A DNA stretch of 64,000 nt from Alphaproteobacteria bacterium (GTDB lineage: Bacteria; Pseudomonadota; Alphaproteobacteria; CALKHQ01): positions 3,296,001-3,360,000 of the forward strand of contig CBDDFZ010000001.1 in assembly GCA_965227515.1 (NCBI GenBank), written 5' to 3'. The notes beneath the pieces were generated by a model. It did no database searches and was not told where the DNA came from. It worked only from the letters and a program-made list of their open reading frames with translations. Below, piece by piece: positions 13,985 to 45,948 of the stretch (position 1 is its first letter; each line of letters opens with the position of its first letter). Position numbers and translations under genes: made by a program.

Positions 13985-14911
13985 ATGACCGCGATAGACG
14001 CATCCACCCCCGCCCCGCCCGTCACGCCACTGGCCGAATGTCCGCGCTGGTGCGTGACCGCCGTGCTGACCCCGGTCCGCGACAATCGCAGCCCGGACGA
14101 CAAGCGGCTTTACGATCACTGCCGGTGGGTGCTGGACGGCGGCTGCAATGGCGTCACCGTCTTCGGCACGACGGGCGAAGGCATGTCGTTCTCGCGCGAG
14201 GAGCGCTGCGCCGCGCTGGAGCAGCTGATTGCCCGCGGCATCGATCCCGGCCAGATCGTCGTCGGCACGGGCGCTGCGTCGATGCGCGAGGCGATCCTGA
14301 TTACCGCCCACGCCGCCTGGCTGGGATGCACCTGTCTGGTGATGCCGCCGTTCTTCTTCCCCGAGCCACCGGCGGACGGCATTGCCGACTTCTACCGCCG
14401 GCTGATCGATGCCATCGGCGACCTCAACCCACGCATCCTGGCGTACCACATCCCGTCGGTATCAGGCGTCGACATGGAGGCCTCGTTGCTGGCTGACCTG
14501 GTGGCCGAGTTCCCCGGCACCATCGTCGGGGTGAAGGACAGCAGCTGCGACTGGGCACAGACGTCGCGCTTCCTGCAGGCATTGCCGGACCAGATCGTGC
14601 TGGTCGGCAACGAGCCGGACCTGCCGGCGGCGCTGGCGAACGGCGGGCGCGGCACCATCTGCGGGCTGGCGAACGTCGCGCCGGGCATGATGGCGCGCCT
14701 GGTGCTGGAGGGCGACGAAACCCAGCCGGCCGAGGTGGACCGCCTGGTCGCCGCGATCGGCGACGCACCGTTCGTCCCAACCCTGAAGGCTGCACTTGCC
14801 ACGATCCGGGATGACGAGGCCTGGCGGCACGTGGTGCCGCCGCTGGCACCGGCGTCAGCCGACGATGGTGCGGCCGTCGCACTAGTCCAGGCGCTAGCGG
14901 CATTGCCTTAG
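13985..14911 (+). CDS. Dihydrodipicolinate synthase/NAL family aldolase
   Basis: FGTTGEG, AYHIP, GVKDSS (Schiff-base Lys). Confidence 0.88.
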   Translation: MTAIDASTPAPPVTPLAECPRWCVTAVLTPVRDNRSPDDKRLYDHCRWVLDGGCNGVTVFGTTGEGMSFSREERCAALEQLIARGIDPGQIVVGTGAASMREAILITAHAAWLGCTCLVMPPFFFPEPPADGIADFYRRLIDAIGDLNPRILAYHIPSVSGVDMEASLLADLVAEFPGTIVGVKDSSCDWAQTSRFLQALPDQIVLVGNEPDLPAALANGGRGTICGLANVAPGMMARLVLEGDETQPAEVDRLVAAIGDAPFVPTLKAALATIRDDEAWRHVVPPLAPASADDGAAVALVQALAALP

Positions 14912-33197: not shown

Positions 33198-33273
33198 GGG
33201 CCCGTAGCTCAGCTGGCAGAGCACCTGACTTTTAATCAGGTTGTCGCAGGTTCGAACCCTGCCGGGCTCACCA
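33198..33273 (+). tRNA. tRNA-Lys (anticodon TTT)
   Basis: 76 nt cloverleaf, anticodon loop CTTTTAA, GTTCGAA T-loop, CCA end. Confidence 0.97.
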
Positions 33274-33274
33274 A
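33226..33274 (+). repeat. att core (left), 49 bp, tRNA 3' part
   Basis: Identical to 45900-45948. Confidence 0.96.
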
Positions 33275-33359
33275 CAAAATCAATTACTTAGACCGAGAAG
33301 CATTTGCCAGCGCGACACGCTTCCTCCAAATAGGTACGACATAGGTCCAGGAGTGCATA

Positions 33360-33635
33360 ATGGCTTTGCAGATGTTTCACATTGGCCCCGACCCTGCAGC
33401 TTTCGGGAACTCTCTCTGGCAGGGTCGGCCCACCAAGGAAGGTGCGCTCATCGCCGCGTCGTCTGCGCAACAGGCCAGAGAGATTGCAGCGGATGCCTAT
33501 GCCGATCCGACGGCAGGCGGCAGGTCACCATGGCTGCAGCCCATCACGACCTTCTGCTATGCGGTGCCATGTGTCGGCCCGATACCCAGCGATCCCGGCA
33601 TCATGGTTGAAGGCTTGAAAAGTCCCGGCCAATAA
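33360..33635 (+). CDS. Hypothetical protein
   Basis: AGGAG RBS, 91 aa, followed by a terminator hairpin. Confidence 0.55.
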   Translation: MALQMFHIGPDPAAFGNSLWQGRPTKEGALIAASSAQQAREIAADAYADPTAGGRSPWLQPITTFCYAVPCVGPIPSDPGIMVEGLKSPGQ

Positions 33636-33638
33636 AGA

Positions 33639-33658
33639 GGCCCCGCCGAAGCGGGGCC
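33639..33658. terminator. Probable bidirectional terminator
   Basis: GGCCCCGC-CGAA-GCGGGGCC between convergent genes. Confidence 0.7.
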
Positions 33659-33687
33659 AGTTTCAAGATGCAAATTTGCGGCTTGAT

Positions 33688-34200
33688 TTACGCGGCGCGA
33701 CGCTTCCGCCCGGCCTCGATGACCTCGTTATCGACCAGCTCGGTATTGTCACCCGGCCCGCGAATGACCAGCGTCTTGCCCTCCGGGATGACCTTGGGAA
33801 TGTAGGTCAGCGGCGGGTCGCGATGCCGGCCCGCATCCATTCGGTAGTGATCGTTGCCGTAACAGTCCTGGTCATAGTCGGGATCGTCCGCTGCCACCGG
33901 GCTCGCTTCACCGCCTTCCTCCTGCCAGCCGCAGTCATCGCACGTCTCGCCCTCCCCTTCGCATTGGGCGCCCTCGTCCTCGCAGTCCTCCTCCACGTCT
34001 TCCAAGTCAGCGTCGAAACCGAACAGGCGTTCCGCGACGCTCCACGGCACGACGATCTCCAGAGTCACGCCATCGTCCGACTGGTCGATGACGTGCCCGG
34101 CGTTGAACATGACGCTTGCCAGGGCCAAGGCATTCTCGATGCCCAGGGACTCTGGAATCGCTGGCGATGTAAGGGATGTGATATGCGTGCCATCAGGCAT
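33688..34200 (-). CDS. Acidic hypothetical protein
   Basis: AAGGAGG RBS; Asp/Glu/Cys-rich middle region. Confidence 0.65.
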   Translation of the reverse strand: MPDGTHITSLTSPAIPESLGIENALALASVMFNAGHVIDQSDDGVTLEIVVPWSVAERLFGFDADLEDVEEDCEDEGAQCEGEGETCDDCGWQEEGGEASPVAADDPDYDQDCYGNDHYRMDAGRHRDPPLTYIPKVIPEGKTLVIRGPGDNTELVDNEVIEAGRKRRAA

Positions 34201-34277
34201 TGCCGTACCTCCTTCATAGGTCGGTTGTGCTTAGGCCGGGTGGGGTGCTCCAACACCTCGCCCGGCCGGTGGGGAAT

Positions 34278-34772
34278 TCAGATCTTGTCCGCGACCTCGT
34301 TCCACACGTCGCTGGCACCCTCGATGAAGGCGTCAACAAACTCGACGGACACGCCGCTCAAGTGTTCCGGCTCAATGCCGAGAAAGATCGCGACATTCTC
34401 GAAGCTCGCTTCGTCGTCGCTAAACACCTGGCCATACAGCCAAGTTGCAGCGTCATCGCCCTGTCCCATGTCCCAAATGACAGCGCTATCTACCTTGGAC
34501 ATAGCCAGAAGCTCGCGGTAACCGGCGCGCTGGCGAGCCCAATGCATACCATTGGCCTTCCCGCCTTGCCCCTCTTCGGCCTGGTAGTTCTCTTTGCTCG
34601 CACGGAGCCTTGCGATAACATCGTCCATTGATGCGATCTCCTTCACGGTTTCGATGTGTCTGAGCTCGCTCTCGAAGGCCCGCTGGGCTGCGGCTGACCA
34701 GTTTGCAGCTTCGCCGGCCGCGTCCATGCGGGCCTTCATTTCATCGGGAACATACACATTCACTCGTGGCAT
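34278..34772 (-). CDS. Hypothetical regulator with ribbon-helix-helix-like N-terminus
   Basis: MPRVNVYVPDEMKARM...NWSAAAQRAF; GGAGG RBS. Confidence 0.65.
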   Translation of the reverse strand: MPRVNVYVPDEMKARMDAAGEAANWSAAAQRAFESELRHIETVKEIASMDDVIARLRASKENYQAEEGQGGKANGMHWARQRAGYRELLAMSKVDSAVIWDMGQGDDAATWLYGQVFSDDEASFENVAIFLGIEPEHLSGVSVEFVDAFIEGASDVWNEVADKI

Positions 34773-34790
34773 TCGGTTCCTCCGAACTCA

Positions 34791-34852
34791 GTGTGTGTAT
34801 GTTGGTCCGACTATGCGCATATGTCAAGCGCCGTCACCAAACATACACACAC
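34791..34852 (-). promoter_or_regulatory. Promoter flanked by a 13-bp perfect inverted repeat (probable autoregulatory operator)
   Basis: GTGTGTGTATGTT (34791-34803) / AACATACACACAC (34840-34852); TTGACA on the minus strand at 34822-34827. Confidence 0.65.
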
Positions 34853-34888
34853 ACGGGTGCGTTTGTCCCACCCTTGGTAAGGGTGGGA

Positions 34889-35086
34889 TCAGTGCACCGT
34901 CCCTGCCGGCGCCTGTAGGGCCTCGACGGCGCGGAGGATACGCAGCCAAGCCGCATGGCCGTCGTCGTCGCCGCGCTGCTGCATCTCTTCGGCCCGCACC
35001 TGTGCCTCAAGTGCGGCGGTGCTGCCAAGGCGCTGAATCAGCAGGTTGGCTGTGCGATAGATGTCCAGGTCACTTGGCTGCGGCAT
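34889..35086 (-). CDS. Small hypothetical protein
   Basis: 65 aa MPQPSDLDIYRTANLL; TGATG coupling to the upstream gene. Confidence 0.7.
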   Translation of the reverse strand: MPQPSDLDIYRTANLLIQRLGSTAALEAQVRAEEMQQRGDDDGHAAWLRILRAVEALQAPAGTVH

Positions 35087-37935
35087 CAGAAGTTCGGCAT
35101 CTCGATATCGCGCTCGTCTAGTATCTGGCGCGCCAATTTCTCGCGCTCGCGTTCCCGTCGGTCGTCGGTCCACGGGACGGTGGACAGGCGCTCCATCTCA
35201 GCAAGTTCGGCCTCCAAGCGCTCCATCTCCTGCGTGTTCAGATACGGGACATTTGACTCACGTTCAGGCGCCTCTTCCTCAACCTCGATATCGGCGCTGA
35301 TACCAACGGCGGCGGCCGCCGCACCAGCGCCGCCAGTCATCGCATCAAGAGCCCCATCAACCAATGCGTCAACCGCGATATCGGCGCCTTGTTCCAAGGC
35401 CTCCTGTTCGTCGACATGCAGCGGCGCAAGGGCCACCAGTTCCTCGGCGGTCCAGGTGCGGATATTGCCTTGCGCATCCACCAGCAACCGCCCAAAGGAC
35501 CGCACGCCCGGCCCGTCGGTTGGCATGACAAGCGCGAAGTTGCCCTGGTGGTTGATCCAGCGTGCCCCGTCAACCCGCCCCGTCCAGGTAGCTCGCATTA
35601 TGCGCTGCTCTACTGGCGACGAAAAGGCGCCATCCAAGAAGTCGGCATAGTAGGTCAGCGGATCAATGGCATGTAACATCTCCCGCGCAACCTGCATGCC
35701 CTCGACGATCTCTTGTCCCTGGGCTCTCGGCACAAACGCGGCGCCGACGGCGGAGTCGATGGGAACCTCGTCCTTGTAGAGAAGATCTATCGCCATCTTG
35801 ATCGCGCGCTCGGCAGGCGTGCTTGTGTCGCCAAAAGCCATCACGCCGATGCTCTGCCCAAAGCCCCCCTCAACCTGCTCGGGCGTGCGGGCCAGGATCG
35901 CAATGGCAAGCTGCGTTGCCGCCGCCTTGTCCTCGTCCGCTATCTCACGCAACAGTTCGGTCGAGCCGACCATGCCCATGAGGTCGGCATAGACATGGCC
36001 GCGTGCAGCCTCGTAGTACGTGTTGACGTCTCGCAACACGTGGTTTCGATCAGCCTCTGACGAATATTGCTCCTTGAAGCGGTCCATCGCCCCGCTATCC
36101 ATGAGCATGTTGGCGATGAATGTGCGCTCGGTGAACGAGTCTGCCGGTGCCGAGACCACGTGACGCCAGAACGGATTGATGCCGGCGTCGATCAGTTGAT
36201 CCATGACCGCCAGTTCCATCGGCTCATCGTCCAGCGCCACCGTCAGGCCCATCAACAACTCGGTCTTGTCGCCCATGTCCTCGGCACGGCGGAAGGTATC
36301 CAGCACGCTGTCCATCATGGCGGCGGGGAATGGCTTCCATTGTTCGGCGTCGGCCGCCAAGGCGCCTTGGCGGCTCCACAGTTCGCGAATGACGGCGCGT
36401 TGCTGCGATGCAGTCCCGCCGTCCGCGAAAGCCGTCGCGAACCGCTCGGCAAGCTCCGGTGACTGCTGCAGCACATAGCCCGGAAGGTCAGCCCCGCGCT
36501 CGCCTAGGATCTTCTGAGCTTGCCCCTGCAATGCCTCGGCGCGGCGCATCCGCGTGGCCAGGTCAGGCCCGCCAGCTTCTAGCGCCGCGCGCTCGTCTGC
36601 GATCATCGCTTCCAGCTCGGCATTCGACATGCCGTGCATGGCCTCGAACTCGCCGGCAAGGCTTCGTGCAGCCTGCAACCCTTCCATCACCTCCGTGCCG
36701 GATGCCGGGTCGAAGCGGTAGGCGCGCATCACCTGGTCGGTCGTCAAGGGATCGGTCACGGGAATGCCGAGTTGCAGCGCCGCGACTTCATCCTCCACCC
36801 GTGCCGCAACGTCGGCCCGCAAGGCGGAGTCCATGTCGAATGCGCGGGCCTCGGCACGGGCATAGAGCCGGTCGGCCTGTTCAGGCGTCAGGCCCTCGAT
36901 CGGCACGCGCTCCGGCAGCATCGGCGCGACAGGCGTCGCGGGCGGCGGTGCCGACTGGACGGGTGTAGACGGCTCGGGCACCGCCAACGCCAGTTCGCGA
37001 AGCTCGTCCAGGCCCTCGGCGGTGTCTTCTACGTCGTTGTTGTCCAACACCCGCGCCAGCTCGCGCACGTAGTCCATTGGCGCGACTGCCTCGCCGGCAC
37101 CGGGCGGGCCACCGGTCTGCACCGCAAACCGCGCGTGATCGCCAAACAACTCGACCGCCCGGTTGAACACCGCAGCGCCTCGTTCGCGGTCGCCAACTTC
37201 GGGCGCATAGACCGTGTCGTCCGGTGGTGCGGCGGCAGGTTGTGGCGGTGCCGTTGGCACGGCGCCATGCGCCTGTAGCCATCCATGCGGGTCGCGGGAA
37301 ATGGCAGCCGAGTGATAGGCATAGCGGTAATCAGCACGCCGCGACTCGAGCAATTCCACGCCAGCCGTGCGCGTGATCAGGCCAGATGAAACCATGCCGC
37401 CGATGGTGAGCCCGATGGTGTCCAGATCGGCCGCCATGTTTGCGGTCGGCATCGAGGCATGAGCCACAAGGTCGTTCAGCGCGGCGGTGGACTGCGCCAG
37501 GTTGTGGTCATCCTCGCGCGCCAATGCCAGGTCACGGACAGCGATGCCAACCCGTCCGACCAGCCCCTCATTGCGGTTGCCGACCGTATCCAGCAAGTCG
37601 GTCTGCAATGCATCCATGACGGTGGGATCGTAGTTCTGTTGCCCCAGCACGCCCGGCAGCGTGGCCCGAAATTCCTCGAACTTCACGGCATAGCTGGCGA
37701 AGTCCTGGTCCTGGTCGAGCTGCTGGAGGAACTGGTCCGACAGATTGCGGATGGTCGCCCTGCCCTCCGACAGTTGCACCGCGCGCAACTGCTCTAGGCG
37801 CTGGTCGACCTCTCCGGTGGCCAGTTCCCCAAACTGCTGCAGCGCTGCACCGCCCTGCCCGAACGATGCCGGGTTGACGGTGGCCGCCCGCCCGGCCTGG
37901 ACCGTCGTGCGCGGCGTGTAGGGAATGATCGGCAT
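35086..37935 (-). CDS. Large helical protein, putative podophage-type internal virion/ejection protein
   Basis: 949 aa; N-terminus MPIIPYTP...PASFGQGGAALQQFG resembles podophage injected proteins (inference). Confidence 0.55.
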   Translation of the reverse strand: MPIIPYTPRTTVQAGRAATVNPASFGQGGAALQQFGELATGEVDQRLEQLRAVQLSEGRATIRNLSDQFLQQLDQDQDFASYAVKFEEFRATLPGVLGQQNYDPTVMDALQTDLLDTVGNRNEGLVGRVGIAVRDLALAREDDHNLAQSTAALNDLVAHASMPTANMAADLDTIGLTIGGMVSSGLITRTAGVELLESRRADYRYAYHSAAISRDPHGWLQAHGAVPTAPPQPAAAPPDDTVYAPEVGDRERGAAVFNRAVELFGDHARFAVQTGGPPGAGEAVAPMDYVRELARVLDNNDVEDTAEGLDELRELALAVPEPSTPVQSAPPPATPVAPMLPERVPIEGLTPEQADRLYARAEARAFDMDSALRADVAARVEDEVAALQLGIPVTDPLTTDQVMRAYRFDPASGTEVMEGLQAARSLAGEFEAMHGMSNAELEAMIADERAALEAGGPDLATRMRRAEALQGQAQKILGERGADLPGYVLQQSPELAERFATAFADGGTASQQRAVIRELWSRQGALAADAEQWKPFPAAMMDSVLDTFRRAEDMGDKTELLMGLTVALDDEPMELAVMDQLIDAGINPFWRHVVSAPADSFTERTFIANMLMDSGAMDRFKEQYSSEADRNHVLRDVNTYYEAARGHVYADLMGMVGSTELLREIADEDKAAATQLAIAILARTPEQVEGGFGQSIGVMAFGDTSTPAERAIKMAIDLLYKDEVPIDSAVGAAFVPRAQGQEIVEGMQVAREMLHAIDPLTYYADFLDGAFSSPVEQRIMRATWTGRVDGARWINHQGNFALVMPTDGPGVRSFGRLLVDAQGNIRTWTAEELVALAPLHVDEQEALEQGADIAVDALVDGALDAMTGGAGAAAAAVGISADIEVEEEAPERESNVPYLNTQEMERLEAELAEMERLSTVPWTDDRREREREKLARQILDERDIEMPNF

Positions 37936-38312
37936 CAGGGACCGTCGTACGGCTCGACCGTGATGTGCCATGCCGAGACGCGACCGTGATCCTCCGCCTT
38001 CGGCTCGCGACTGGTAACTAGCAGTTGCATGCGGCTGTGAGGCTTCACGCCACCGCGCCAGGTCGGGCTACCAGCCGCGCGGGCCTCGAACTTGCCAGGG
38101 CCGTATAGGCATAGGATTGTGTCGTCGACGTACAGGATTTCGCCATAGGCGCTGTCGAACCAGCCCGGCGCCAGGATTTCCTCCGGCGTTGCGTGCGTCA
38201 TTAGCGTCCAACGCGAGGGGCACGATCCAACTGATTCCGTCCGAACCATGTCTTGCCTGCCCAGGTGAACCGGCGGACGATCTGTCGGCTTTTCGAGCGT
38301 TTTGGTAGTCAT
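37935..38312 (-). CDS. Hypothetical phage protein
   Basis: Translationally coupled on both sides; EEILAPGWFD...VDDTIL recalls small capsid-adjacent podophage proteins. Confidence 0.55.
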   Translation of the reverse strand: MTTKTLEKPTDRPPVHLGRQDMVRTESVGSCPSRWTLMTHATPEEILAPGWFDSAYGEILYVDDTILCLYGPGKFEARAAGSPTWRGGVKPHSRMQLLVTSREPKAEDHGRVSAWHITVEPYDGP

Positions 38313-39055
38313 CTCTTTCTCCGTTCAATGTTGTAGTGCGTAGGCATTGGTCGCCGTCTTTCCGCTGTGCGCGGCTTGGCGAAGCGCAGGCTCATGACGG
38401 CAATGCGCGTTGCCGACAGCAAGTCGTCGGCTTCCTTCACGATCTTCCCGGCCTTGCGGTGATAAAGGCGGAATTCCTCGAACCAGTCGGCCAGGTGCGA
38501 GAACACCTTGAAGCGGCCGGCCTGCATGTATTCCAGCATCTGAGTGATGCCGGCCTCGGTGCCGAAGCCGCCGTCCTCGTGGGTCGCGTGCTCAGGCAGC
38601 ATGTTGAGCCCCCGGCGGCGGTATCCGCCCGCCAGCGCCTCGCCTGAGCCCTTGTCGTGCTGGTGACCGTCGTGCGGCCAGGCCCAGGGCATCGCCGGTC
38701 CCCAGGGCTTGATGGCGTCGACGTGGATGGCCGGAGTTTCCTCGCGCGCCCGATAGCACTGCGCCACGTAGATCACGTCATCGTCGCGGTCCCAGGCCAG
38801 CTTCACGGCGCCGAAAGGATGGTCCCAACCGAAGTCCATGCCACCGATGCAGGCGTAAAAGTCCGGCACCTTGAACGGCGCGCAGGTGATGCCTTCCTCG
38901 GCCACAGGAAAAACCCGGCCGCTGCCCAGCATCGGCACGCCCTTGGCACGGGCTTCGCGCTCGTGGGCGGGGTAGTCCGCAGCGATGCGCTCGCGTTCCT
39001 CCGGGCTGAAATGCTCGGCATCGTCCAGCGTCAGGAAGGTGACGTGTTTCGTCAT
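38309..39055 (-). CDS. Terminase large subunit, C-terminal nuclease half
   Basis: YPAHEREARAKGVP, GMDFGWDHP, WPHDG, DDLLSATR (P22-like RNase H fold). Confidence 0.9.
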   Translation of the reverse strand: MTKHVTFLTLDDAEHFSPEERERIAADYPAHEREARAKGVPMLGSGRVFPVAEEGITCAPFKVPDFYACIGGMDFGWDHPFGAVKLAWDRDDDVIYVAQCYRAREETPAIHVDAIKPWGPAMPWAWPHDGHQHDKGSGEALAGGYRRRGLNMLPEHATHEDGGFGTEAGITQMLEYMQAGRFKVFSHLADWFEEFRLYHRKAGKIVKEADDLLSATRIAVMSLRFAKPRTAERRRPMPTHYNIERRKR

Positions 39056-39834
39056 CGGCGCCGCACCCGGTAGTGGCTTGGAAGCGGCTTCGGCGGGATC
39101 TTCACGCCCATCGGGTCGTCATCGGCCTCGGTCCAACCCGGCGGGTCAACCAGTTCGGGTTCGCCCTCGTCCACGTCCTGGTGGATGAAGCCGCGCACCA
39201 CTTCCGACATGCCCAACAGCGGTGTCATCGTCGCCAATGCGATGCCGCGGTTGTCGGATAGCCGGGCCAAGCCCTCGTTGTAGATATCGACGGGCGGTTC
39301 CTCGTCGTACCAAATCAAATGCAGCGCCGCGCCCTGCCACTTCTCGCGGCCCTTTTCATAGGTCTTGAAGCCCAGGATGGATTGGCCGCCGGTCACATGC
39401 TTGATGATCACCTGGTCGAGCGCGTCGGCAACCGTGCGGGCCATCGAGTGCGGCCCCAGGGCATCGCCCGGTATCATCCCCGTGCCCCAGGACGATCTGT
39501 CGGCGGGCGGGCCAATCAGCTTCTCTTGCGGAACGTCGCGCGTGGACTCGGACGTGATGCCGGATGCCCAGGCAACTATCGGCTCGCCAAACCGCTTGCC
39601 CTTCCACCAGTCCGGATATCGGCCAGTCAGGTGCATCGCGACTTCGGCGCCGCCGGCCAGCGTCTTGCCGCATCGATTGCCTCCCAACAGCAAGCGCTCG
39701 CGGTGCTCGGCACCAGCGGCATGGAACTCAGCCTGTTTCGGATAGGGTCGATACCTGGATAGCTTGCGGCGGGCCTTGCGGCGGGCCAGCTCGGCAAGCT
39801 CGGCATCGAGTTCCTTGAGCGCCTCAGCCGTCAT
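39052..39834 (-). CDS. Terminase large subunit, N-terminal ATPase half
   Basis: PYPKQAEFH, Walker A GGNRCGKT, Walker B IWYDEEP, TMTP coupling motif. Confidence 0.92.
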   Translation of the reverse strand: MTAEALKELDAELAELARRKARRKLSRYRPYPKQAEFHAAGAEHRERLLLGGNRCGKTLAGGAEVAMHLTGRYPDWWKGKRFGEPIVAWASGITSESTRDVPQEKLIGPPADRSSWGTGMIPGDALGPHSMARTVADALDQVIIKHVTGGQSILGFKTYEKGREKWQGAALHLIWYDEEPPVDIYNEGLARLSDNRGIALATMTPLLGMSEVVRGFIHQDVDEGEPELVDPPGWTEADDDPMGVKIPPKPLPSHYRVRRR

Positions 39835-40258
39835 GTTCGATGACCTTCGCGGCCAGCCCCAACTGACGCATCTTCGCCGCAATGGATGCCTCGATCTGTT
39901 CGTCGGTGCGAGTGTCCATCTGCACCCGCGCGTCTACCCGGTCGACAAGGTGGCCACTCAGCTTGCCCTGCAACTCGGTCGCCTTCACGGCGGCGCTGTG
40001 CTGGCCGGCTTCCCGTGCCGCCTCACGGTCTTCCTTGAGCTGGGTCATCAGCTTGTCGACGGTGAATTCGTTCCGCTTTGCCGTCTCGGCCTGGATCTCG
40101 GCAATGCGAACCTTCACGTCGTCGCGCTTGAGCAACTCCCGCGCCCGGTACCGCCCGCCCCGATAGCCCGCCTGCCGCGCGGCCTCAGCCCCGGAATTCC
40201 CGGCGGCATAGGCAATGGCAAACGCTTCCATGCGAGGATTCCAGCGGTAACGGGCCAT
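39824..40258 (-). CDS. Terminase small subunit
   Basis: FAIAYAAGNSGAEAARQAGY helix-turn-helix, LLKRDDVKVRI, AVKATELQGK; directly upstream of terL. Confidence 0.85.
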   Translation of the reverse strand: MARYRWNPRMEAFAIAYAAGNSGAEAARQAGYRGGRYRARELLKRDDVKVRIAEIQAETAKRNEFTVDKLMTQLKEDREAAREAGQHSAAVKATELQGKLSGHLVDRVDARVQMDTRTDEQIEASIAAKMRQLGLAAKVIEHDG

Positions 40259-40938
40259 CAGCCCAAGCTGCCATCCGCCGGCTTGTCGCCGTACAACCGC
40301 GTCGCCAACCGCATGCCGATATCGGCCAGCCGCTTGGCTTCGTCACGGTCGCCGCGCCTGTTTGCATCTATGGACTGCCCCACAGCCTTCTGACGGGCGC
40401 GCTCCAGCCGGGCACGCTCCGTTGCACTCAATTCCTCGGGTTCCACTCCATCACTCCTTTCACCAACTTCGCCATGGTCGGCGGGGGTTGCGTAGATTCC
40501 AGGCCATGCCGTCTGGCGGCGGGCCGATAGCTCCCGCTTGGCCAGGGCCGACAACAGGCCGACATCCTTGTCCAGCCCCGCCTTCACGCCAGCGTTCACC
40601 AATGCCGGAGGAAGGCTGGACAGGGCGGACTGCACCAACCGGACGTTCAGGTCGTAGTCGCCGCCCCAGGCCCGCTTGAGGTTGCCCGCAAGGGTCGGGT
40701 CCGTCTTGGCGAACTCGGCAGGCGTCGGCACGTCATCGCCCAGCGTGCTGCCCAGGTAGCTCGTCAGGTTGCGCAGCGACTCCGGGCTCTGCCCCTCAAC
40801 GCCAGGCGCAAGCCCAGGTGTCGGGTCGTCGTGCTCGAACTCCGCGAAGTCCTCTACCGGGGCGGGCCTGTCCTCAAGGAACGCCTCGACATCGGCGTCG
40901 ATAAGCGCCTCTTGCGCTTCGGCGGGAATCTCACTCAT
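40258..40938 (-). CDS. Hypothetical protein, capsid scaffolding-like
   Basis: Acidic Pro-rich N-terminus; LKRAWGGDYDLNV...GLDKDVGLLSALAK resembles podophage scaffold motifs (inference). Confidence 0.5.
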   Translation of the reverse strand: MSEIPAEAQEALIDADVEAFLEDRPAPVEDFAEFEHDDPTPGLAPGVEGQSPESLRNLTSYLGSTLGDDVPTPAEFAKTDPTLAGNLKRAWGGDYDLNVRLVQSALSSLPPALVNAGVKAGLDKDVGLLSALAKRELSARRQTAWPGIYATPADHGEVGERSDGVEPEELSATERARLERARQKAVGQSIDANRRGDRDEAKRLADIGMRLATRLYGDKPADGSLG

Positions 40939-41165
40939 CGACCGGCAAGCCGCTTGTTGCGCTCGGCAGGCGTCTCGGTCTTGCCAATGCCGTAGTCAGC
41001 TTCGGCGAAGTGCTGCCGCAGCGGCCCCCTGCCATGGCCGCCAATCAAGCCGTGCAGGCCACCGGCGGGAACGTCCATGCTGACGCGCCAGCATCCGCCC
41101 GGCAGGCCCTGCAACACCTTCATCTCGGATTGGTCGTCAATGACCGCGCACACCAGCTTCGCCAT
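40935..41165 (-). CDS. Small hypothetical protein
   Basis: ATGA coupling to the next gene. Confidence 0.6.
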   Translation of the reverse strand: MAKLVCAVIDDQSEMKVLQGLPGGCWRVSMDVPAGGLHGLIGGHGRGPLRQHFAEADYGIGKTETPAERNKRLAGR

Positions 41166-41167
41166 CG

Positions 41168-41356
41168 TCAGGCCGCCTGCGCCGTGATCGTCACGACACC
41201 TGCCGTGGTGCCGTTCGTGGCGAACTCTTGCGCAATTGTCCGCAGCACCGGGTCACGGTGGCTGGTCAGGTTGTTGTGAACGTCGTACCCCGCGTCCGCG
41301 CTGCCGATCTTTATCGACACCGCGTCAGCCTCGTATCTCACTGTCGTGCTGGCCAT
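41168..41356 (-). CDS. Small hypothetical protein, first gene of the packaging operon
   Basis: GGAGGG RBS, start MASTTVRY. Confidence 0.6.
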   Translation of the reverse strand: MASTTVRYEADAVSIKIGSADAGYDVHNNLTSHRDPVLRTIAQEFATNGTTAGVVTITAQAA

Positions 41357-41558
41357 GTGGCCCTCCGTACCTATCACGTACCTATTTCTGAGTATGGACT
41401 AAAAACGCCACAAAAACAATGATGAACAACTGATAAAAGGTCAGTCACTCGTTTCCAGTGGCGATGCGAGATGCGCGGCAGGTTGGTTCAAGGCAGTCAT
41501 CGCGCGCGTGGCTCGAAGTGGCTTGCAGAGGCTCTCTCCACGCCATCAGAAACAAACC

Positions 41559-41669
41559 GGACAAGACGGACACAACCGGACATGTCCGCCAAATGTCCGG
41601 AAGCACTGCCAACCGGACAGACAGGACATGGACATAAGTAATGTCCTGTCCTGTCCGGGTGCTTTGTCC
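41559..41669. repeat. GGACA/TGTCC iteron cluster, putative replication origin
   Basis: Six GGACA and six TGTCC pentamers in 111 bp of non-coding DNA downstream of the helicase operon. Confidence 0.75.
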
Positions 41670-41674
41670 GGCTC

Positions 41675-42001
41675 TCAGAAGTGGAAGTGAGGGTCGTCGT
41701 TGTCGTTTGCAATTTCGGTGCGATGGTCATCGGTGCACTGGCCGGCTGCCGGATTGTGGATGGGCTCGACTTCTTTGTAGTCCTCCAGCTTCCTGGCGTT
41801 GGCGTCCCAGTCTGCCTGGGTTTCCAGGTGCCAGTCTGAGAACATGTCCACGCCGCCGGACCAAGCGGTGCGGTGCTCATCGCAGACGAACACATGCACC
41901 CTTCCCACGTTGAGGTAGCCGTCCGACTTGCCGCAACGAGGGCAGCCGCCGAAATAGTGCTCGGCAGCGTTCGCCATGATCTGGTCGTGTGTCAGTGCCA
42001 T
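41675..42001 (-). CDS. Small Zn-finger-like hypothetical protein
   Basis: GCPRCG...VCDEH; GAAGGGAAG RBS-like sequence. Confidence 0.65.
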   Translation of the reverse strand: MALTHDQIMANAAEHYFGGCPRCGKSDGYLNVGRVHVFVCDEHRTAWSGGVDMFSDWHLETQADWDANARKLEDYKEVEPIHNPAAGQCTDDHRTEIANDNDDPHFHF

Positions 42002-42012
42002 CGGTCTTCCCT

Positions 42013-43089
42013 TCATGAAGTCCATGCGTAGTTCCCCCAGACGCCAACCATCCCCTTCTCCTGGAGGCTGGTAAGCGAACGCTTGAAGGCCTTCTGGCGT
42101 GCGTCCTGTCCGTCGATGCCGGCACCTTCGTAGAAGTACGAGCGCCACAAGCTCAGCGTTACGACAGGCTGGTTCATCGGTATGTGGTTGCTGGCTGGCG
42201 CTATCTCGCCTTCATCGGCTAATGCCTTTTTCAACAGATCCAGCGCCACCTTCGCCTGTCCGCGCACCTGGCGGCCGACCGGCTCGGCCTGATAGTCGTC
42301 TTCCTCGACCACGCATGAGGTGAGGTCGTCGCCGTCGTCGTCCACGCCGACCGTGACGGATGCGAGCCTGGAAGCGATCACGTCGCCCTCGGGGCCGTCC
42401 TTCATGTCCTCGACAGTGGCGGTGATGGTTCCGCTGGCGGTGCGCTGCACGGCGATCTGTGCATCGGCTGCGGCGGTCAGGGACGTGTGTCCGCGCGGGC
42501 GGGTGCCATCGATACCGCAGTGATGGACCACAACGACGGCGCAATCGAACGCCTGGCGGATGGCGTCGGCTGCCGCGATGTATGCGCCCATGGCTTCGTC
42601 GTCACGCTCAGAACCGACCAATGAGCGGTTCAGGGTGTCCAGGACGACTGCGACAGGTGGCTGATCCTGCATCTGTGTGCGGATAGCTGGGATCAGGGCC
42701 TCATGCTCCCTGATCAGGTCAATGCGCACCGGAAGCAGGCGGAATGGTACCGGCTCCACCGACTCCGCCAGCTTGACCATACGGAAGGCCTCGGCTCGCA
42801 GATTGAAGCCGTCGGCGCCCTCGAAGGCGCAATAGACCACCGGGCCTTGCGTGACACGCCGACCGCGATATTCCCAGCCCAGCGCCACGTGCATCGCGGC
42901 ATCGAAGGCCCAGAACGACTTGCCGCACTTCGGCGGTCCCCAAACCACCGTCAGTCCGCGCCTCGGCATCAGGCCTTTGATCAAATATTGACGGCCGCCG
43001 CGGGGGCGTAGGGCATCGAACGGCAGCAATGCGAACCGGGGCGGTGTCGCCTTGTCGAAGTCGTCATTCAGATCCCTAAGCTGCTGCAT
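42013..43089 (-). CDS. RepA-like AAA (SF4-type) replicative helicase
   Basis: GPPKCGKS, VVLDTLNR, VVHH, RPRGHTSL. Confidence 0.88.
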   Translation of the reverse strand: MQQLRDLNDDFDKATPPRFALLPFDALRPRGGRQYLIKGLMPRRGLTVVWGPPKCGKSFWAFDAAMHVALGWEYRGRRVTQGPVVYCAFEGADGFNLRAEAFRMVKLAESVEPVPFRLLPVRIDLIREHEALIPAIRTQMQDQPPVAVVLDTLNRSLVGSERDDEAMGAYIAAADAIRQAFDCAVVVVHHCGIDGTRPRGHTSLTAAADAQIAVQRTASGTITATVEDMKDGPEGDVIASRLASVTVGVDDDGDDLTSCVVEEDDYQAEPVGRQVRGQAKVALDLLKKALADEGEIAPASNHIPMNQPVVTLSLWRSYFYEGAGIDGQDARQKAFKRSLTSLQEKGMVGVWGNYAWTS

Positions 43090-43771
43090 CCAACTCTCCC
43101 GCCGGCCACAGTCGTGCGTCGATGCCGGCAGTCGTCAGCTTCAGCAGCGCCTCGGTGTCGTCGGTCAAGGCGCGGTCGACACCCCACAGCTCGTGCGGAT
43201 CGTCGTTCAGCCACACGACGCCAGGGCCATGCACCTGCCTGTGCCATGCCGCGACTGTGCCGTAGACGACCAGCGGCTCGTCGCAGATCAGGGCGCGGTC
43301 GATGGGATCAGGCCCGATGCCGCAGCCCAGGATGCCGGGGAAGCGTAGCCGCAGGTAGGTCTGGCGACTGTTCGGCCTCCACGCTACCGAATTGAGCACC
43401 TCCCCGTGAGGCGAGCGCATCGGGCTGATACACCACAGTTCGGATGGCCGGGTCAGCCGGTCGGACAGAAGGTGGTCGGGGAACGGCGCGTATCGCCCGG
43501 CCCCAACCAGGATGCGGTCAACGCCGATCAGGTCGGTTGCCTTCTGCATCTCCAGCGTGATGGCGTGGGCGCGCAACCGGTCGTTCAGGCCGTAACGCTC
43601 GGCCAGGCGCTGAGCGATGGCCAACTCGTGGTGGAAGTCCACGTCCGGTTGAACATCTGCGGCGAAGGCGGTATGATCAGCGTCGGAATTGAAGCCAGCC
43701 AGCTCAATCCATTCTTCCGCCGCCCCGGTTCCGCCAACCGTGGGCGGCGGTTTCGTATCAAGCTGCGTCAC
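43076..43771 (-). CDS. Hypothetical protein coupled to the helicase (possible primase-related)
   Basis: Overlaps the helicase start; VAWRP...LR...LG...PLVV pattern; function is inference. Confidence 0.6.
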   Translation of the reverse strand: MTQLDTKPPPTVGGTGAAEEWIELAGFNSDADHTAFAADVQPDVDFHHELAIAQRLAERYGLNDRLRAHAITLEMQKATDLIGVDRILVGAGRYAPFPDHLLSDRLTRPSELWCISPMRSPHGEVLNSVAWRPNSRQTYLRLRFPGILGCGIGPDPIDRALICDEPLVVYGTVAAWHRQVHGPGVVWLNDDPHELWGVDRALTDDTEALLKLTTAGIDARLWPAGELDAAA

Positions 43772-43784
43772 CCGAAATTCCCTG

Positions 43785-43836
43785 TTGACGTGGCTTCATA
43801 ATGACACCATCATAAGTGGCTTCATTATGAAGTCAA
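43785..43836. promoter_or_regulatory. Divergent promoter/operator region
   Basis: Two imperfect palindromes TGGCTTCATAATGACACCA (43791) and TGGCTTCATTATGAAGTCA (43817), with TTGAC on each strand. Confidence 0.7.
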
Positions 43837-43851
43837 CCGGGGAGTTCGTGC

Positions 43852-44346
43852 ATGCCGCCGAAAGACCGGAAAGCCGGTGACCGTGCGACGATCACGTTGC
43901 GCCTGCCGGAGAACATTCGGGCGGAGTTGGAGATAGAAGCCGAACGCTCAGGCGTCTCGATGAACGCGCTGATTACACAGCAGCTTGAGCGCGCGGCACG
44001 AGCCAACAAGGCGCTATCTGCAATGGAACGTGTCACTGGTATGCTCGCAAGGCATCAAGACACAATGCTGAAGGTATTTGATAGCCACGCCGCGCAAATA
44101 AAGCAGCTCAATATTGTTGAGCAAAAGCTATTTAATGTCATAGATATTTGCACTGAAACAATCCACGACTACGAACAAGACATGAGTAGGCGCAATATTA
44201 GCTTCACTCCCGTTGCCGATAGAATTCGCGGTCAGCTGGATATGCTTAAGATATTGGCAGAGACTGTGCACGCGCATTATCTGGAAGAAGAGCGCGCGGC
44301 AAGAAACGAAATGCAGGTCAAGGAAGGTGAGGCGGCCGATGACTGA
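43852..44346 (+). CDS. Arc-family (ribbon-helix-helix) DNA-binding protein
   Basis: ITLRLPENIRAELEIEAERSGVSMNALI. Confidence 0.75.
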   Translation: MPPKDRKAGDRATITLRLPENIRAELEIEAERSGVSMNALITQQLERAARANKALSAMERVTGMLARHQDTMLKVFDSHAAQIKQLNIVEQKLFNVIDICTETIHDYEQDMSRRNISFTPVADRIRGQLDMLKILAETVHAHYLEEERAARNEMQVKEGEAADD

Positions 44347-44533
44347 TACCGTCATGGATCGCATCGTCCGGGAGCCTGAGGCTCGCCAGATTTCCGGGCT
44401 GTCCCGGTCTCAGCGTTATCGCCTGGAGCGCGAGGGGAAGTTCCCCAAGAAGCGTGCGATCACCGGCAGCCTGTACGGTTACAGGCTCTCCGAGTTGATG
44501 GCATGGGTCGAGGGGCTACCGGAGCGGAACTAG
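44339..44533 (+). CDS. alpA: AlpA family regulator/excisionase
   Basis: IVREPEARQISGLSRSQRYRLEREGKFPK...SELMAW. Confidence 0.88.
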   Translation: MTDTVMDRIVREPEARQISGLSRSQRYRLEREGKFPKKRAITGSLYGYRLSELMAWVEGLPERN

Positions 44534-45735
44534 CCCCGCTCCATCACCACGACGTTGCCACCGATGCCGAGCAGCTGACGAAGTTTCAAGCCCCACGATT
44601 CCAGCGCCGCCGTCTTTTCGGCCAGGTAGTCGTGCCGATCATAGACCCGCCCGACGCCGACCTCCGTGTGGTTCAGCACACGGTCAACGATGAAGCGCGT
44701 GTGGCCCAGCTTCGTCATGCCGGTGGATGCGGTGCGCCGCAGGTCGTGCGCCCGGAAGTTTGCCACGCCTGACAGGTTCTTGATGGCCTCCGACGCTTTC
44801 GAGGACGCCCGCACGTGCGTGTTCCGGCGGGTTGGCGATGGAAAGACCAGCGCGTCGTCGAGCCCCTGCTGGTCCCGCACGATATCCATGGCGAGATCGC
44901 TCAGCGGCACGATGTGCGTTTTCTTGTTCTTCGTGCGGTCGCCGGGGATGGTCCATTGGTGGGCCTCAAGGTCGACTTCATCCCACCGCATGCCGCAGAC
45001 CTCGTTCGGGCGCTGTGCGGTGACCAGGATCGCTTTCAAGGCTGCGCCGTGGATGCCGCGCACATCGAATGCCTGCCACAGCGCATGGATCTCAGCGTCA
45101 GTGTAGACACGCTCGCGCTCAACCTCGGCGCCTGGCGCCGGCAGCTTGTGCGCCGGGTTGTTCTCGATACCACCAGTGTCGGTCGCCAGCGCCCAGTTGT
45201 ACATCTTGCGCACGACGGCGAGGCACCGGTTAGCCTGATAGGGACCATTCCGCGAGGCGATGGCGTGCAAGCGCTCGTTCACCTCGCGCCGTGCGATATC
45301 TTCCGCCGGGCGCTTCTGCCAGTCGGCGAAATAGGTGTCGAGGATGCGTTTGTCCTCTGCCCAGCTCCGCTTTTTCACCATGGCCCAGCGTTCGATATAC
45401 AGGTCCGCCAGTCCCTTGAACGTCAGGCGGGCGGCCTCGACTTCGGCCCGTGCCTTCGCGGCACGTTTTTCCACGACGGAATCAACGCCCTTCTGCGCCA
45501 AGCCTCTTTTCTCGACGGCCATCTGGCGAGCATCTTTAAGACCAATCTCCGGGAATGTGCCGAAGGTCTCGCGGCGCTGTTTGCCGTTCACTGCATATCG
45601 GCAGAACCATGCGACCCGACCGCCGGGACTGACACGGACACCAAGACCGCGCGTCTCGGTATCGAACCAGTCGACCTGCCCTTCGCCCGGCTTCAGACTT
45701 TCCAGCCAACGGGCCGTAAACTTATGCTGCGCCAT
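44530..45735 (-). CDS. Tyrosine integrase with arm-binding domain (P4-like)
   Basis: GLGVRVSPGG arm domain; TAQRPNE, TKN, HDLRR, LNH, VY catalytic residues. Confidence 0.95.
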   Translation of the reverse strand: MAQHKFTARWLESLKPGEGQVDWFDTETRGLGVRVSPGGRVAWFCRYAVNGKQRRETFGTFPEIGLKDARQMAVEKRGLAQKGVDSVVEKRAAKARAEVEAARLTFKGLADLYIERWAMVKKRSWAEDKRILDTYFADWQKRPAEDIARREVNERLHAIASRNGPYQANRCLAVVRKMYNWALATDTGGIENNPAHKLPAPGAEVERERVYTDAEIHALWQAFDVRGIHGAALKAILVTAQRPNEVCGMRWDEVDLEAHQWTIPGDRTKNKKTHIVPLSDLAMDIVRDQQGLDDALVFPSPTRRNTHVRASSKASEAIKNLSGVANFRAHDLRRTASTGMTKLGHTRFIVDRVLNHTEVGVGRVYDRHDYLAEKTAALESWGLKLRQLLGIGGNVVVMERG

Positions 45736-45899
45736 GTCTGCCTCCGCGATAGGTACCTCATAGGTACAGACAGGACATGGCACGCACCGGCACGCATTGC
45801 AACAGCACGAAACACAACGAACCGATAACATATTGACATATAATGAGAAAAAACTCCACACGCGAGACAATCAGAAACACACCGAAACATGACCTCAAA

Positions 45900-45948
45900 T
45901 GACTTTTAATCAGGTTGTCGCAGGTTCGAACCCTGCCGGGCTCACCAA
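45900..45948 (+). repeat. att core (right), duplicated tRNA-Lys 3' end
   Basis: Identical to 33226-33274. Confidence 0.96.

Follow-up and report, generated by a model that had tools for sequence, protein, structure and literature searches.

The 12.7-kb element described here, E1, is probably an integrative satellite that exploits podoviruses carrying a T7-type portal, and a member of a previously undescribed family, a reading to which we attach a probability of roughly 0.6. It occupies positions 33226-45948 of the window, i.e., the whole 64,000-nucleotide stretch of alphaproteobacterial DNA analysed, with perfect 49-bp repeats at both ends and a tRNA-Lys. Since look-alike elements recur in other bacteria, E1 is most likely a novel type of parasite of short-tailed phages, and we infer from its anatomy and recurrence that it would depend on a helper. 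The preliminary description, which already proposed a satellite, named a capsid or portal match and relatives that are deleted prophages as findings that would speak against it; both were looked for and neither was found.

E1 was evidently inserted into the 3' end of tRNA-Lys by a tyrosine integrase (Table 1). Indeed, attL is the 3' end of tRNA-Lys(ttt), the sole tRNA recognized by ARAGORN in the window, and the two repeats are exact copies, as first noticed. The GC content of the element is 62.9%, compared to 66.1% and 67.2% in its flanks. Neither an attB nor an attP joint was present in the contigs of public sequencing runs. Pfam and PHROG each provided matches for 7 of the 21 ORFs tried, namely the integrase, AlpA, the ribbon-helix-helix (Arc-like) protein, the AAA_25 helicase, TerS and two TerL pieces. 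The initial calls of integrase, AlpA and helicase were thus all recovered in Pfam, whereas the Arc-like match is weak, HicB being above its cut-off and Arc (8.8e-4, 19.5 bits) below a cut-off of 20.4 bits.

Table 1. Features of E1 and its integration site (window positions; percentages are identities).
Feature	Position	Strand	Evidence and remarks
tRNA-Lys (anticodon ttt), integration target	33198..33273	+	ARAGORN
attL, exact 49-bp direct repeat	33226..33274		
Terminator-like hairpin (8 G-C pairs and a T run), leftward operon end	33639..33658	-	consensus match only
p170, acidic, Cys-rich	33688..34200	-	no Pfam/PHROG match; 95% to E2 p176
p164	34278..34772	-	no Pfam/PHROG family; first 79 residues 54% to the E6 (G354) ORF at the same position
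Large internal-virion-like protein	35086..37971	-	961 aa from first ATG, 949 aa from ATG 37935
p125, family-specific small protein, always immediately before the large virion protein	37935..38312	-	79% in E2, 38% in E5; AlphaFold model uninformative (pLDDT 45)
TerL C-terminal piece, ATPase domain end and RNase H-like nuclease	38309..39055	-	Terminase_6C 1.3e-22
TerL N-terminal piece, ATPase core	39052..39882	-	Terminase_6N 8.1e-15; GKT at residue 72, YDEE at residue 192; likely start ATG 39834
TerS (small terminase)	39824..40258	-	Terminase_2 3.5e-7; phrog_51 6.1e-12
p226, predicted all-helical, possibly scaffold-like	40258..40938	-	96% in E2, 27% in E5
p76, start of the coupled late block	40935..41165	-	conserved in E2 and E5
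p69, small ORF	41168..41377	-	conserved in E2
Putative replication origin: AT-rich stretch and six CCGGACA iterons, three per strand	41380..41680		
p157, small, CxxC...CxxH motif	41675..42148	-	likely start near 42025; no Pfam or PHROG family
AAA_25 (RepA/DnaB-like) replicative helicase	42013..43089	-	PF13481 4.6e-33; phrog_2850, phrog_906
p231, heading the leftward operon; conserved helicase partner	43076..43771	-	73% in E2, 33% in E5
Divergent promoter-like sites and putative operator repeats	43785..43836		
Ribbon-helix-helix (Arc/CopG-like) regulator	43852..44346	+	Pfam HicB 1.2e-5; PHROG
AlpA-type regulator/excisionase	44339..44533	+	PF05930 2.2e-13; open from 44213, likely start ATG 44339 or 44354
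Tyrosine integrase	44530..45870	-	likely start 45735; Pfam Phage_integrase 5.9e-20, Arm-DNA-bind_3 1e-15
attR, exact 49-bp direct repeat	45900..45948		

The Arc-like/AlpA pair is divergent from a single long leftward operon, and two operator-like repeats lie between them. These 15-bp repeats (GTGGCTTCAT[A/T]ATGA), which together also make up an inverted repeat, overlap the promoter-like sites. The operon reads p231, helicase, iteron and AT-rich origin, coupled block and terminator-like hairpin. The iteron cluster reported earlier is present, as 6 of the 17 CCGGACA sites of the whole window fall in 41557-41671, next to the AT-rich stretch 41380-41440. The late block (p76, p226, TerS, the two-piece TerL, p125 and the 949/961-aa protein) is translationally coupled: ATGA overlaps join p76 to p226, TerL-N to TerL-C and TerL-C to p125, TGATG overlaps join p226 to TerS and p125 to the large protein, and TerS and TerL-N share 11 nt. 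A coupled minus-strand operon had been proposed from 41165 to 34889; its six junctions stand, whereas the last ORF (34889-35173) is doubtful because it overlaps the large gene at the latter's end and its codon-position GC is poor.

The terminase had been described as complete and P22-like. Both subunits are present, yet TerL is encoded by two ORFs instead of one, and the P22-like label finds no specific support, the closest TerLs being those of Rhizobium RHph_N2-type phages, Xfas53, RSK1 and similar podophages. TerL-C is 55% identical to residues 239-476 of the RHph_N2 TerL, and TerL-N has an extra tail of 43 aa. The split site is the same in E3 (a podophage gene set of the same genome, with a 60% identical copy), in G001 and in G002, and the same split occurs in 8 of 79 assessable, unrelated loci, which indicates a conserved variant and not decay. 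Substitutions between E1 and its relative E2 are purifying, with a pN/pS of 0.21 for p226, 0.11 for TerS and 0.16 for TerL-N, and three synonymous but no nonsynonymous changes in TerL-C. Given these low values and the shared split site, the genes of E1 look functional.

The large protein has no direct match in Pfam or PHROG. Its relatives carry M15 or transglycosylase domains and match the virion families phrog_992, phrog_873 and phrog_1044, and homology through them supports a virion-internal (ejection) type, even though the E1 copy is devoid of the lysin domain. The earlier internal-virion-like call is further borne out by the proteins found in the same position in related elements: in E2 an 848-aa full-length homolog of Ab31 ORF16 whose entire length is covered by a match to phrog_684 ('virion structural protein', 5.6e-161), and in E5 a match to phrog_6651 'internal virion protein' (1e-53). 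The large protein thus varies among elements, each time with the features of an internal-virion type. The E1 family is rare: among 401 sampled genomes of the class, the E1 protein occurs in one, its own, and it had no match in the phage, viral-contig, genome-contig and metagenome-contig collections. The sole sizeable unassigned protein of the late operon, p226, had been considered scaffold-like. Its AlphaFold model is all-helical, in agreement with this proposal, with a low confidence (pLDDT 52.7), and its Atlas scaffold score of 0.88 falls below the tool's lead threshold of 0.9, so that p226 may at best be tentatively called scaffold-like.

The announced lack of capsid, portal and tail genes was confirmed: none of the E1 ORFs matched a capsid (HK97-type), portal or tail family in Pfam or PHROG, and the structural proteins of Ab31, E3 and E4 gave no tblastn match. 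E1 harbors neither coat, portal, tail nor lysis gene. Similarly, no capsid, portal or tail PHROG was matched by the 62 ORFs of four small elements of Bradyrhizobium type, and podophage structural queries matched none of 10 small elements, compared to 13 of 80 loci overall.

Such a compact form recurs and does not correspond to deleted prophages. E2, in the same genome (C1:1750477-1762932), is a 12.4-kb element with a 56-bp direct repeat at a tRNA-Phe and the gene order of E1; its DNA from p69 to p125 is 95.5% identical, while tblastn detects no relationship between the integrases, helicases and large proteins of the two. E5, from a sister genus (G002:C196:130-12798), measures 12.6 kb, with a 49-bp direct repeat, a tRNA-Thr and an integrase 58% identical to that of E1; it encodes p231-like, p76-like and p226-like proteins, TerS, p125 and two large proteins, without TerL. 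E6, from another family, is a 16.5-kb element with a 65-bp direct repeat and a tRNA-Ala that encodes an integrase, a helicase and three large ORFs of 934, 557 and 857 aa; the two outer ones match Ab31 ORF14 and ORF16. Moreover, 9 of 80 TerL-anchored loci, mostly in Bradyrhizobium, are integrase-helicase-TerL elements of 12.9-14.9 kb. Eight are att-bounded, seven of them adjoining a tRNA-Ser, -Trp, -Asn or -Pro; the ninth, a contig of 14.5 kb whose ends overlap by 113 bp, indicates a circular form. The Bradyrhizobium type has only integrase, helicase and TerL in common with E1, and in a quick TerL tree small elements occupy at least three separate places, so that a single common family is unsupported. 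The sizes of 12.4, 12.6 and 12.7 kb despite differing gene content suggest a packaging-size constraint, about one third of a headful of roughly 38 kb.

Alternatively, E1 could be the cryptic remnant of a temperate podophage, immobile now, in which a deletion from portal to tail fused TerL to the internal-virion gene. The order from TerS and TerL to the internal protein is indeed that of an Ab31-type map minus portal-to-tail, TerL lies in two ORFs, the large protein lacks the lysin domain of its relatives, and other phage debris (E3, E4) is found in the same genome. We nevertheless consider this origin unlikely. The same compact architecture occupies four distinct tRNAs, its integrases, helicases and large proteins being unrelated, and would require repeated identical deletions. 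Perfect att repeats, purifying substitution and a conserved TerL split in place of a random frameshift also argue against it, as does a replication module of P4/PICI type with its own iterons, unlike a phage early region; tblastn found no portal or capsid pseudogene fragment. Less likely still, E1 could be chiefly an anti-phage island, with TerS, TerL and the lysin-less protein as decoys that would disrupt the packaging of an infecting podophage or poison its virions, and its own transfer secondary or absent. Known satellites are described as disturbing helper packaging, a lysin-less virion-internal copy could be dominant negative, and the cargo genes p164 and p170 belong to no Pfam or PHROG family. 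On the contrary, the integrase, att, origin and helicase set and the near-constant size of 12.4-12.7 kb point to selection for packaging and movement; such a role would in any case be compatible with satellite status.

The genome of E1 also contains E3 and E4, 313 kb apart, which together encode portal, scaffold, capsid, tubular tail and fibre genes, suggesting that podophages of matching type infect the lineage. Neither has large internal proteins, and the genome yielded no intact helper prophage. If E1 and E2 were partners of a chromosomally fixed, GTA-like head-tail set made of E3 and E4, their DNA alone would be packaged and delivered. That they supply such a set with TerS, TerL and ejection protein is the least probable explanation. 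In its favour, all four genomes of the bacterial family have an open gene for the E4 tubular tail protein B (67-70% identity), the same gene order next to tRNA-Pro recurs in G001, the GC3 of E3 and E4 genes is host-like (0.85-0.93 vs. 0.75-0.82 in E1) and the gap from the tubular tail gene to the fibre gene is about 3 kb, vs. 7.4 kb with three large internal proteins in Ab31. Against it, the flanking host genes tested are not common to G000 and G001, allowing independent integrations at tRNA-Pro, E3 carries its own split TerL, p125-bearing elements occur in one of three other family genomes, so that the head-tail cluster persists without them, and particle production is putative.

As a satellite, E1 would respond to infection by, or induction of, a helper podophage through the opening of its switch, excise, and then replicate from its own origin. 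Its TerS would select E1 DNA, and the two TerL pieces, acting together, would dock on helper procapsids and fill them, while p226 may influence capsid assembly in a scaffold-like manner. The large internal protein would be built into the particles and join DNA ejection into the next cell.

Several known satellites share part of this gene set. VEIMEs and PICMIs are described as small, integrative and capsid-gene-free elements, some with TerS, whose concatemers are presumed to fill helper capsids of full size (PMC9618062; PMC10803314). The VEIME passages considered name no terminase component beyond small subunits and 'motor-like ATPases', the large terminase being presumed to be the helper's, and 'internal virion' occurs 0 times in that text (PMC9618062); unlike VEIMEs as described there, E1 has its own TerL and an internal virion-type protein. 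Gram-negative PICIs of the EcCICFT073 type, as far as described, resemble E1 by their size class, terminal integrase with att repeats, AlpA, own replicase/helicase and origin, TerS, and lack of capsid and tail genes (PMC10085698). E1 differs from them by a complete, two-piece TerL, a virion-internal protein of roughly 950 aa, the lack of recognized Ppi/Rpp or capsid-morphogenesis genes in Pfam and PHROG, an alphaproteobacterial host lineage and the podoviruses implied as helpers. TerL has been described as a core gene that sets cf-PICIs apart (PMC10085698). Such cf-PICIs also encode both terminase subunits but, unlike E1, have capsid, portal, protease and head-tail adaptor/connector genes and steal only tails. 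P4-like satellites are likewise tRNA-integrated, of about 11-13 kb, with an integrase, an AlpA-type regulator and a primase/helicase-type replication, whereas Pfam and PHROG detected no Sid, Psu, Delta or cos-type feature in E1. To our knowledge, P4 has neither a terminase nor a virion-internal protein. In T7, gp14-16 are the internal virion (ejection) proteins, and in Ab31 ORF14-ORF16. The relatives of the E1 protein resemble those of T7 and Ab31-like phages, being large proteins with an embedded lysin domain that the E1 copy lacks. Podophage internal-virion genes lie between tubular tail and fibre genes, whereas the single one of E1 follows TerL and p125 and, unlike its phage counterparts, is the only virion gene of the element.

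The two ends of E1, the 12.7-kb element at the tRNA-Lys gene, are exact 49-nt direct repeats, the left of which corresponds to the 3' end of that gene, the sole tRNA in the window, and GC content is 62.9% between the repeats as against 66-67% in both flanks. Pfam matches seven of the 21 candidate E1 ORFs, and PHROG matches the same seven (Table). From the ORF p76 to the large protein, successive genes are joined by ATGA, TGATG, an 11-nt overlap, ATGA, ATGA and TGATG. The top promoter-like site is directed into the leftward operon and is enclosed by two 15-bp repeats that double as an inverted repeat. The clustered CCGGACA iterons, six of the 17 sites of the window within 115 bp, are divided three per strand and adjoin an AT-rich stretch. 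The repeats, the domain matches and the junctions confirm the anatomy set out in the preliminary description, that is, att repeats, integrase, alpA, arc, helicase, iterons and a coupled operon.

Table. Features of E1 and their positions in the window.
Feature	Coordinates	Evidence or remark
tRNA-Lys(ttt)	33198-33273	
Left direct repeat	33226-33274	
Strongest terminator-like hairpin	33658-33639	past the last gene
p164	34278-34772	N-terminus ribbon-helix-helix-like by eye
Terminase_6-type TerL, two pieces	38309-39882	Pfam and PHROG
TerS, Terminase_2 type	39824-40258	Pfam and PHROG
Iteron cluster	41557-41671	
AAA_25 helicase	42013-43089	Pfam and PHROG
Top promoter-like site	43836-43809	10 of 12
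Ribbon-helix-helix Arc-like protein	43852-44346	Pfam and PHROG, weak scores
AlpA	44339-44533	PF05930 (2.2e-13) and PHROG
Tyrosine integrase	44530-45870	Pfam and PHROG
Right direct repeat	45900-45948	

The claim that E1 has no capsid, portal or tail also stands: neither Pfam nor PHROG identified capsid, portal, tail or lysis families among the 21 ORFs, nor any HK97-fold capsid, protease or head-tail adaptor/connector, and podophage structural proteins used as tblastn queries found no match in the element. No primase domain was detected in these ORFs either. No empty site or circle joint of E1 was seen in the contigs of four public runs, contigs being uninformative on activity, and one run from a second study contributed short, low-depth fragments that match E1 exactly.

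The element was said to encode a complete terminase, which holds for its content, TerS and both TerL domains being present, and fails for TerL as a single polypeptide, since the protein is divided between two ORFs. The N piece has a Walker A (GKT, residue 72) and a Walker B motif (YDEE, residue 192), and the C piece has the RNase H-like nuclease domain (Terminase_6C). The upstream ORF is 54% identical to residues 21-232 of the TerL of Rhizobium phage RHph_N2 (479 aa) and the downstream ORF, in another frame, is 55% identical to residues 239-476; the former has 43 extra residues ahead of a stop that overlaps the downstream ATG (ATGA). A third TerL copy of the host genome, in the podovirus gene cluster E3, is 60% identical and split at the identical residue, with a different junction (stop ending at 14504 and ATG starting at 14506 of locus L013). 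We surveyed 80 loci found with the C-terminal piece, one genome per species, of which 79 were assessable: TerL was contiguous in 69, split at the E1 site in eight (L016, L017, L018, L032, L039, L042, L046 and L048) and differently truncated in two (E. coli and Shigella). The halves are also separate in the sister-genus genomes G001 and G002, and two PHROG families match one half alone (phrog_31467 the N half, phrog_5653 the C half). Between E1 and E2, a second element of the same genome, the C piece shows three synonymous and no nonsynonymous changes, and the N piece has a pN/pS of 0.16. We read the split, from these comparisons, as a putative conserved two-subunit variant and not as decay; split terminases are mentioned for other phages in the part of the literature covered here. 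Such a conserved two-piece TerL offers a ready case for studying how the ATPase and nuclease halves of a terminase assemble.

The same-site split is scattered over branches of the TerL tree, and the gap between the halves ranges from 0-100 nt to 3.2 kb in G002 (C176) and 7.9 kb in L018; it may be the trace of a mobile insertion, for instance a homing endonuclease or an intron. The tree is a quick version, compatible with one or several origins of the small elements described below.

A BLAST search of E1 against its own genome recovered E2 at C1:1750477-1762932 (locus L011:5477-17932), 12.4 kb long and lying between copies of a 56-bp direct repeat at the tRNA-Phe gene. Its genes follow the order integrase, p281, AAA_25 helicase, p62, p78, p226, TerS, TerL-N, TerL-C, p125, an 848-aa protein, p176 and p109. 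In DNA, its p69-p125 block shares 95.5% identity with the E1 counterpart, and p231/p281 and p170/p176 share 73% and 95% identity; the integrases, helicases and large proteins of the two elements gave no tblastn match at 1e-4, the large proteins having in common only their first 14 residues, where they overlap p125. Over its whole length the 848-aa protein corresponds to phrog_684 ('virion structural protein', 5.6e-161), and it is homologous to ORF16 of the Pseudomonas phage Ab31 and to 'putative internal virion proteins' of Pelagibacter podophages.

Two further elements lie in other genomes of the class. E5, from the sister genus (G002:C196:130-12798), spans 12.6 kb between 49-bp direct repeats at tRNA-Thr. 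Its integrase shares 58% identity with the E1 enzyme and is accompanied by AlpA, a p231-like protein and a D5-type primase. Next come p76-like and p226-like (27% identity) proteins, TerS, a homolog of p125 with 38% identity, and a protein of 518 aa whose homology is to residues 1-233 of the large protein of E1; the last gene of E5 encodes 1081 aa matching phrog_6651 'internal virion protein' (1e-53), and the element has no TerL. E6, found in another family (G354:C1:871927-888486, loci L133/L127), measures 16.5 kb, is delimited at tRNA-Ala by a 65-bp direct repeat, and carries an integrase, a 657-aa AAA_25-containing protein, a p164-like ORF and three large ORFs in a row of 934, 557 and 857 aa. 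The first of these matches Ab31 ORF14 and the third ORF16, the second has no tblastn match, and BLAST found no terminase, capsid or tail in E6. The same genome also contains a full podophage-type prophage (L129, C1:2880001-2899000) with capsid, tubular tail, ORF14-16 homologs and fibre. The N-terminus of p164 is 54% identical to the E6 ORF at the corresponding position, and p164 may represent cargo common to both elements.

Direct repeats of at least 25 bp flank TerL on both sides in 11 of the 80 TerL-anchored loci, and nine elements of 12.9-14.9 kb among these loci combine integrase, AAA_25 helicase and TerL. Eight of the nine are att-bounded (six Bradyrhizobium loci, one alphaproteobacterial MAG and one Rhodospirillaceae MAG), and seven adjoin tRNA-Ser, -Trp, -Asn or -Pro, no tRNA being called for L031. 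The ninth, L023, is a Hyphomicrobium MAG contig (JBAZXL010000060.1, 14,543 bp) with a 113-bp overlap between its two ends, which suggests a free circular or concatemeric molecule in the sample. The Rhodospirillaceae element encodes, after TerL, a 747-aa protein matching phrog_1044. A PHROG scan of 62 of 93 chosen ORFs, covering four elements and leaving out L025 (three ORFs scanned with Pfam), L027, L030, L031, L035, L048 and E6, identified TerL in all four, TerS in one, and no capsid, portal or tail families. By tblastn, 19 podophage structural proteins match 13 of the 80 loci and none of ten small elements. As each locus extends 10 kb on either side of TerL, so that the att sites of full prophages are invisible, these counts are not frequencies. 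Bradyrhizobium sp. McL0616 (NZ_CP188255.1) harbors two such elements, L036 and L027, one 12.9 kb long beside tRNA-Trp, the other 13.3 kb beside tRNA-Asn, a parallel to the E1/E2 pair.

Comparable elements occur at other att sites and in other genomes, as had been sought, namely E2, E5, E6 and the nine elements of 12.9-14.9 kb. This bears on the view that E1 is the leftover of a prophage after deletion, which its gene order would fit. That origin is unlikely, as the layout recurs with unrelated integrases, helicases and large proteins, the att sites are perfect and the E1/E2 substitution pattern is purifying; the relatives are a recurring, att-bounded form of 12.4-16.5 kb, not deleted prophages.

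Neither Pfam nor PHROG matches the large protein of E1, which is 961 aa long, or 949 aa if translation starts at the second ATG. A word-indexed search returned one relative, P0002, of 881 aa, with 31% identity over 51% of the query, and a profile search against 1.84 billion representatives returned 234 sequences at E<=1e-3, 63 at E<=1e-10 and seven at E<=1e-30. Residues 254-355 of P0002 form an M15 peptidase domain, at the position of which the E1 protein has an unrelated Pro/Ala-rich segment; an embedded peptidoglycan-hydrolase domain is thus absent from it. Thirteen of the 14 relatives scanned, P0005 being the exception, match PHROG families annotated as endolysin, head protein, tape measure or tail-injection transglycosylase, by way of the embedded lysin domain and the stretch that follows, P0004, P0006 and others matching phrog_992, phrog_873 and phrog_1044. 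The layout of the relatives is apparently that of lysin-bearing internal virion proteins of podoviruses, to which the E1 protein would be tied transitively, through these relatives. An hhalign comparison of its family with the 747-aa protein of locus L021 was negative. P0002-P0006 occur in Logan/ENA assemblies only (P0005 on 13.5-kb contigs), and no relative was present in the phage, viral-contig, genome-contig or metagenome-contig collections; among 401 sampled genomes of the class, the 961-aa protein occurs in one, the host genome itself, whose bacterial family and order comprise four genomes in all. The lysin-domain part of the large-protein profile also has a weak match (E 6.1e-4), at 23480-23983, to a 474-aa open frame in the host flank of E1.

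Scaffolding proteins of phages are elongated and helical, have a C-terminal helix-turn-helix and are encoded in the head module; p226 is a tentative candidate for such a protein. The AlphaFold model of p226 is all-helical with a pLDDT of 52.7, and that of p125 has a pLDDT of 45.3, both too low for fold searches. The Atlas lead for p226, 'putative scaffolding protein' at 0.88, falls under the 0.9 lead threshold of the tool, and its sequence homologs are confined to E2 and E5; p125 has no usable Atlas match.

Beside the observed gene set, order, coupling, boundaries, recurrence and selection on genes of E1, we infer a life cycle of excision, replication, packaging and ejection. An Arc-like/AlpA switch would keep the element repressed until a helper relieves this repression; E1 would then excise and replicate from the iterons by means of p231 and the helicase. 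TerS would recognise the element's own DNA, the two-piece TerL would drive it into helper procapsids, and the large internal protein would be built into the particles, from which the DNA would be ejected into a new cell and integrate. The p125-type elements measure 12.4, 12.6 and 12.7 kb, even though one of them has shed TerL and acquired another large protein, and this near-equal size despite gene differences fits a packaging-size constraint. Three copies amount to ~38 kb, much the same length as related contigs of podophage size (36.7 and 38.7 kb). That E1 is chiefly an anti-phage defence island, a role compatible with satellite status, appears distinctly unlikely.

The host genome also contains two podovirus gene clusters. 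E3 (G000:C1:2632585-2638508, L013) comprises DUF6456, the split TerL, a T7-type portal (PF12236, 5e-129), a Bbp19-like protein and a phrog_3742 scaffold/protease-like protein. E4 (G000:C1:2951788-2966278, L096/L097) lies 313 kb beyond in like orientation, ends at tRNA-Pro and encodes a Phage_capsid_2 major capsid protein, tubular tail proteins A and B, a small internal virion protein, a fibre N-terminus, a Laminin_G protein and an amidase. Genes of both types are contiguous in L053 and L022, and the G001 counterpart (C2:32966-72275) has its clusters 18 kb apart. Upstream of E3, a TPS secretion domain occurs in a protein of 2411 aa (L013:2892-10127), and directly after the scaffold-like gene comes a 379-aa RTX-repeat protein (L013:18526-19665). 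As the nearest relatives of the E1 TerL are podovirus TerLs and the genome carries E3 and E4, the lineage evidently meets podophages of matching structural type.

Both clusters are intact, and together they could be a domesticated, GTA-like system. That E1 and E2 work in partnership with this head-tail set is very unlikely, for although tubular tail protein B (tubB) is present in all four genomes of the family, gene order is kept in G001, GC3 is host-like and the large internal virion proteins are missing from the clusters, the tested flanking host genes are not common to G000 and G001 and particle production by the clusters is hypothetical. It is also improbable, though conceivable, that E1, E2 and E5 are satellites with their own ejection protein and terminase that exploit a GTA-like podovirus head-tail set (E3 and E4), fixed in the chromosome, present in all four sequenced species of the family and itself stripped of its large ejection proteins; if so, making particles and delivering DNA would be a task that a domesticated locus shares with small mobile elements.

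We rate E1 as a probable phage satellite whose set of hijacking genes is new. If true, satellites would be extended to podoviruses of Alphaproteobacteria, including those of the agriculturally important Bradyrhizobium, and a natural system would be available for the recruitment of ejection proteins into procapsids. More speculatively, a satellite might carry ejection proteins in order to enter cells in which a resident helper prophage keeps out those of the helper itself, and the elements would allow a test of whether variant ejection proteins admit a satellite to helper-excluding cells.

Compared with known satellites, E1 resembles the PICIs of Gram-negative bacteria in its terminal tyrosine integrase with att repeats, its AlpA and TerS, and its own replication module of AAA_25 helicase and iteron cluster. 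PICIs redirect packaging by TerS or Rpp and have neither TerL nor virion structural genes, whereas E1 has TerL and a putative virion-internal-type protein. Like cf-PICIs, it encodes both TerS and TerL, the latter being common to these two only among the satellites compared, but the capsid, portal and connector genes that define cf-PICIs are absent. So are the P4 proteins Sid, Psu and Delta, which serve capsid sizing and transactivation, as judged by Pfam and PHROG sequence profiles. For VEIMEs, the portion of the source consulted reports only small terminases in the elements (PMC9618062). A satellite with terminase and internal virion protein and without capsid is not described in the literature searched, which was covered in part, and supplying the packaging motor and part of the ejection machinery while taking the coat, portal and tail of a helper is undescribed for the families compared. 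Three strategies are known among satellites: redirection of the terminase by TerS (PICI), remodelling of the capsid (P4, SaPI, PLE), and own heads with stolen tails (cf-PICI). If our reading is true, E1 would add a fourth hijacking strategy beside them.
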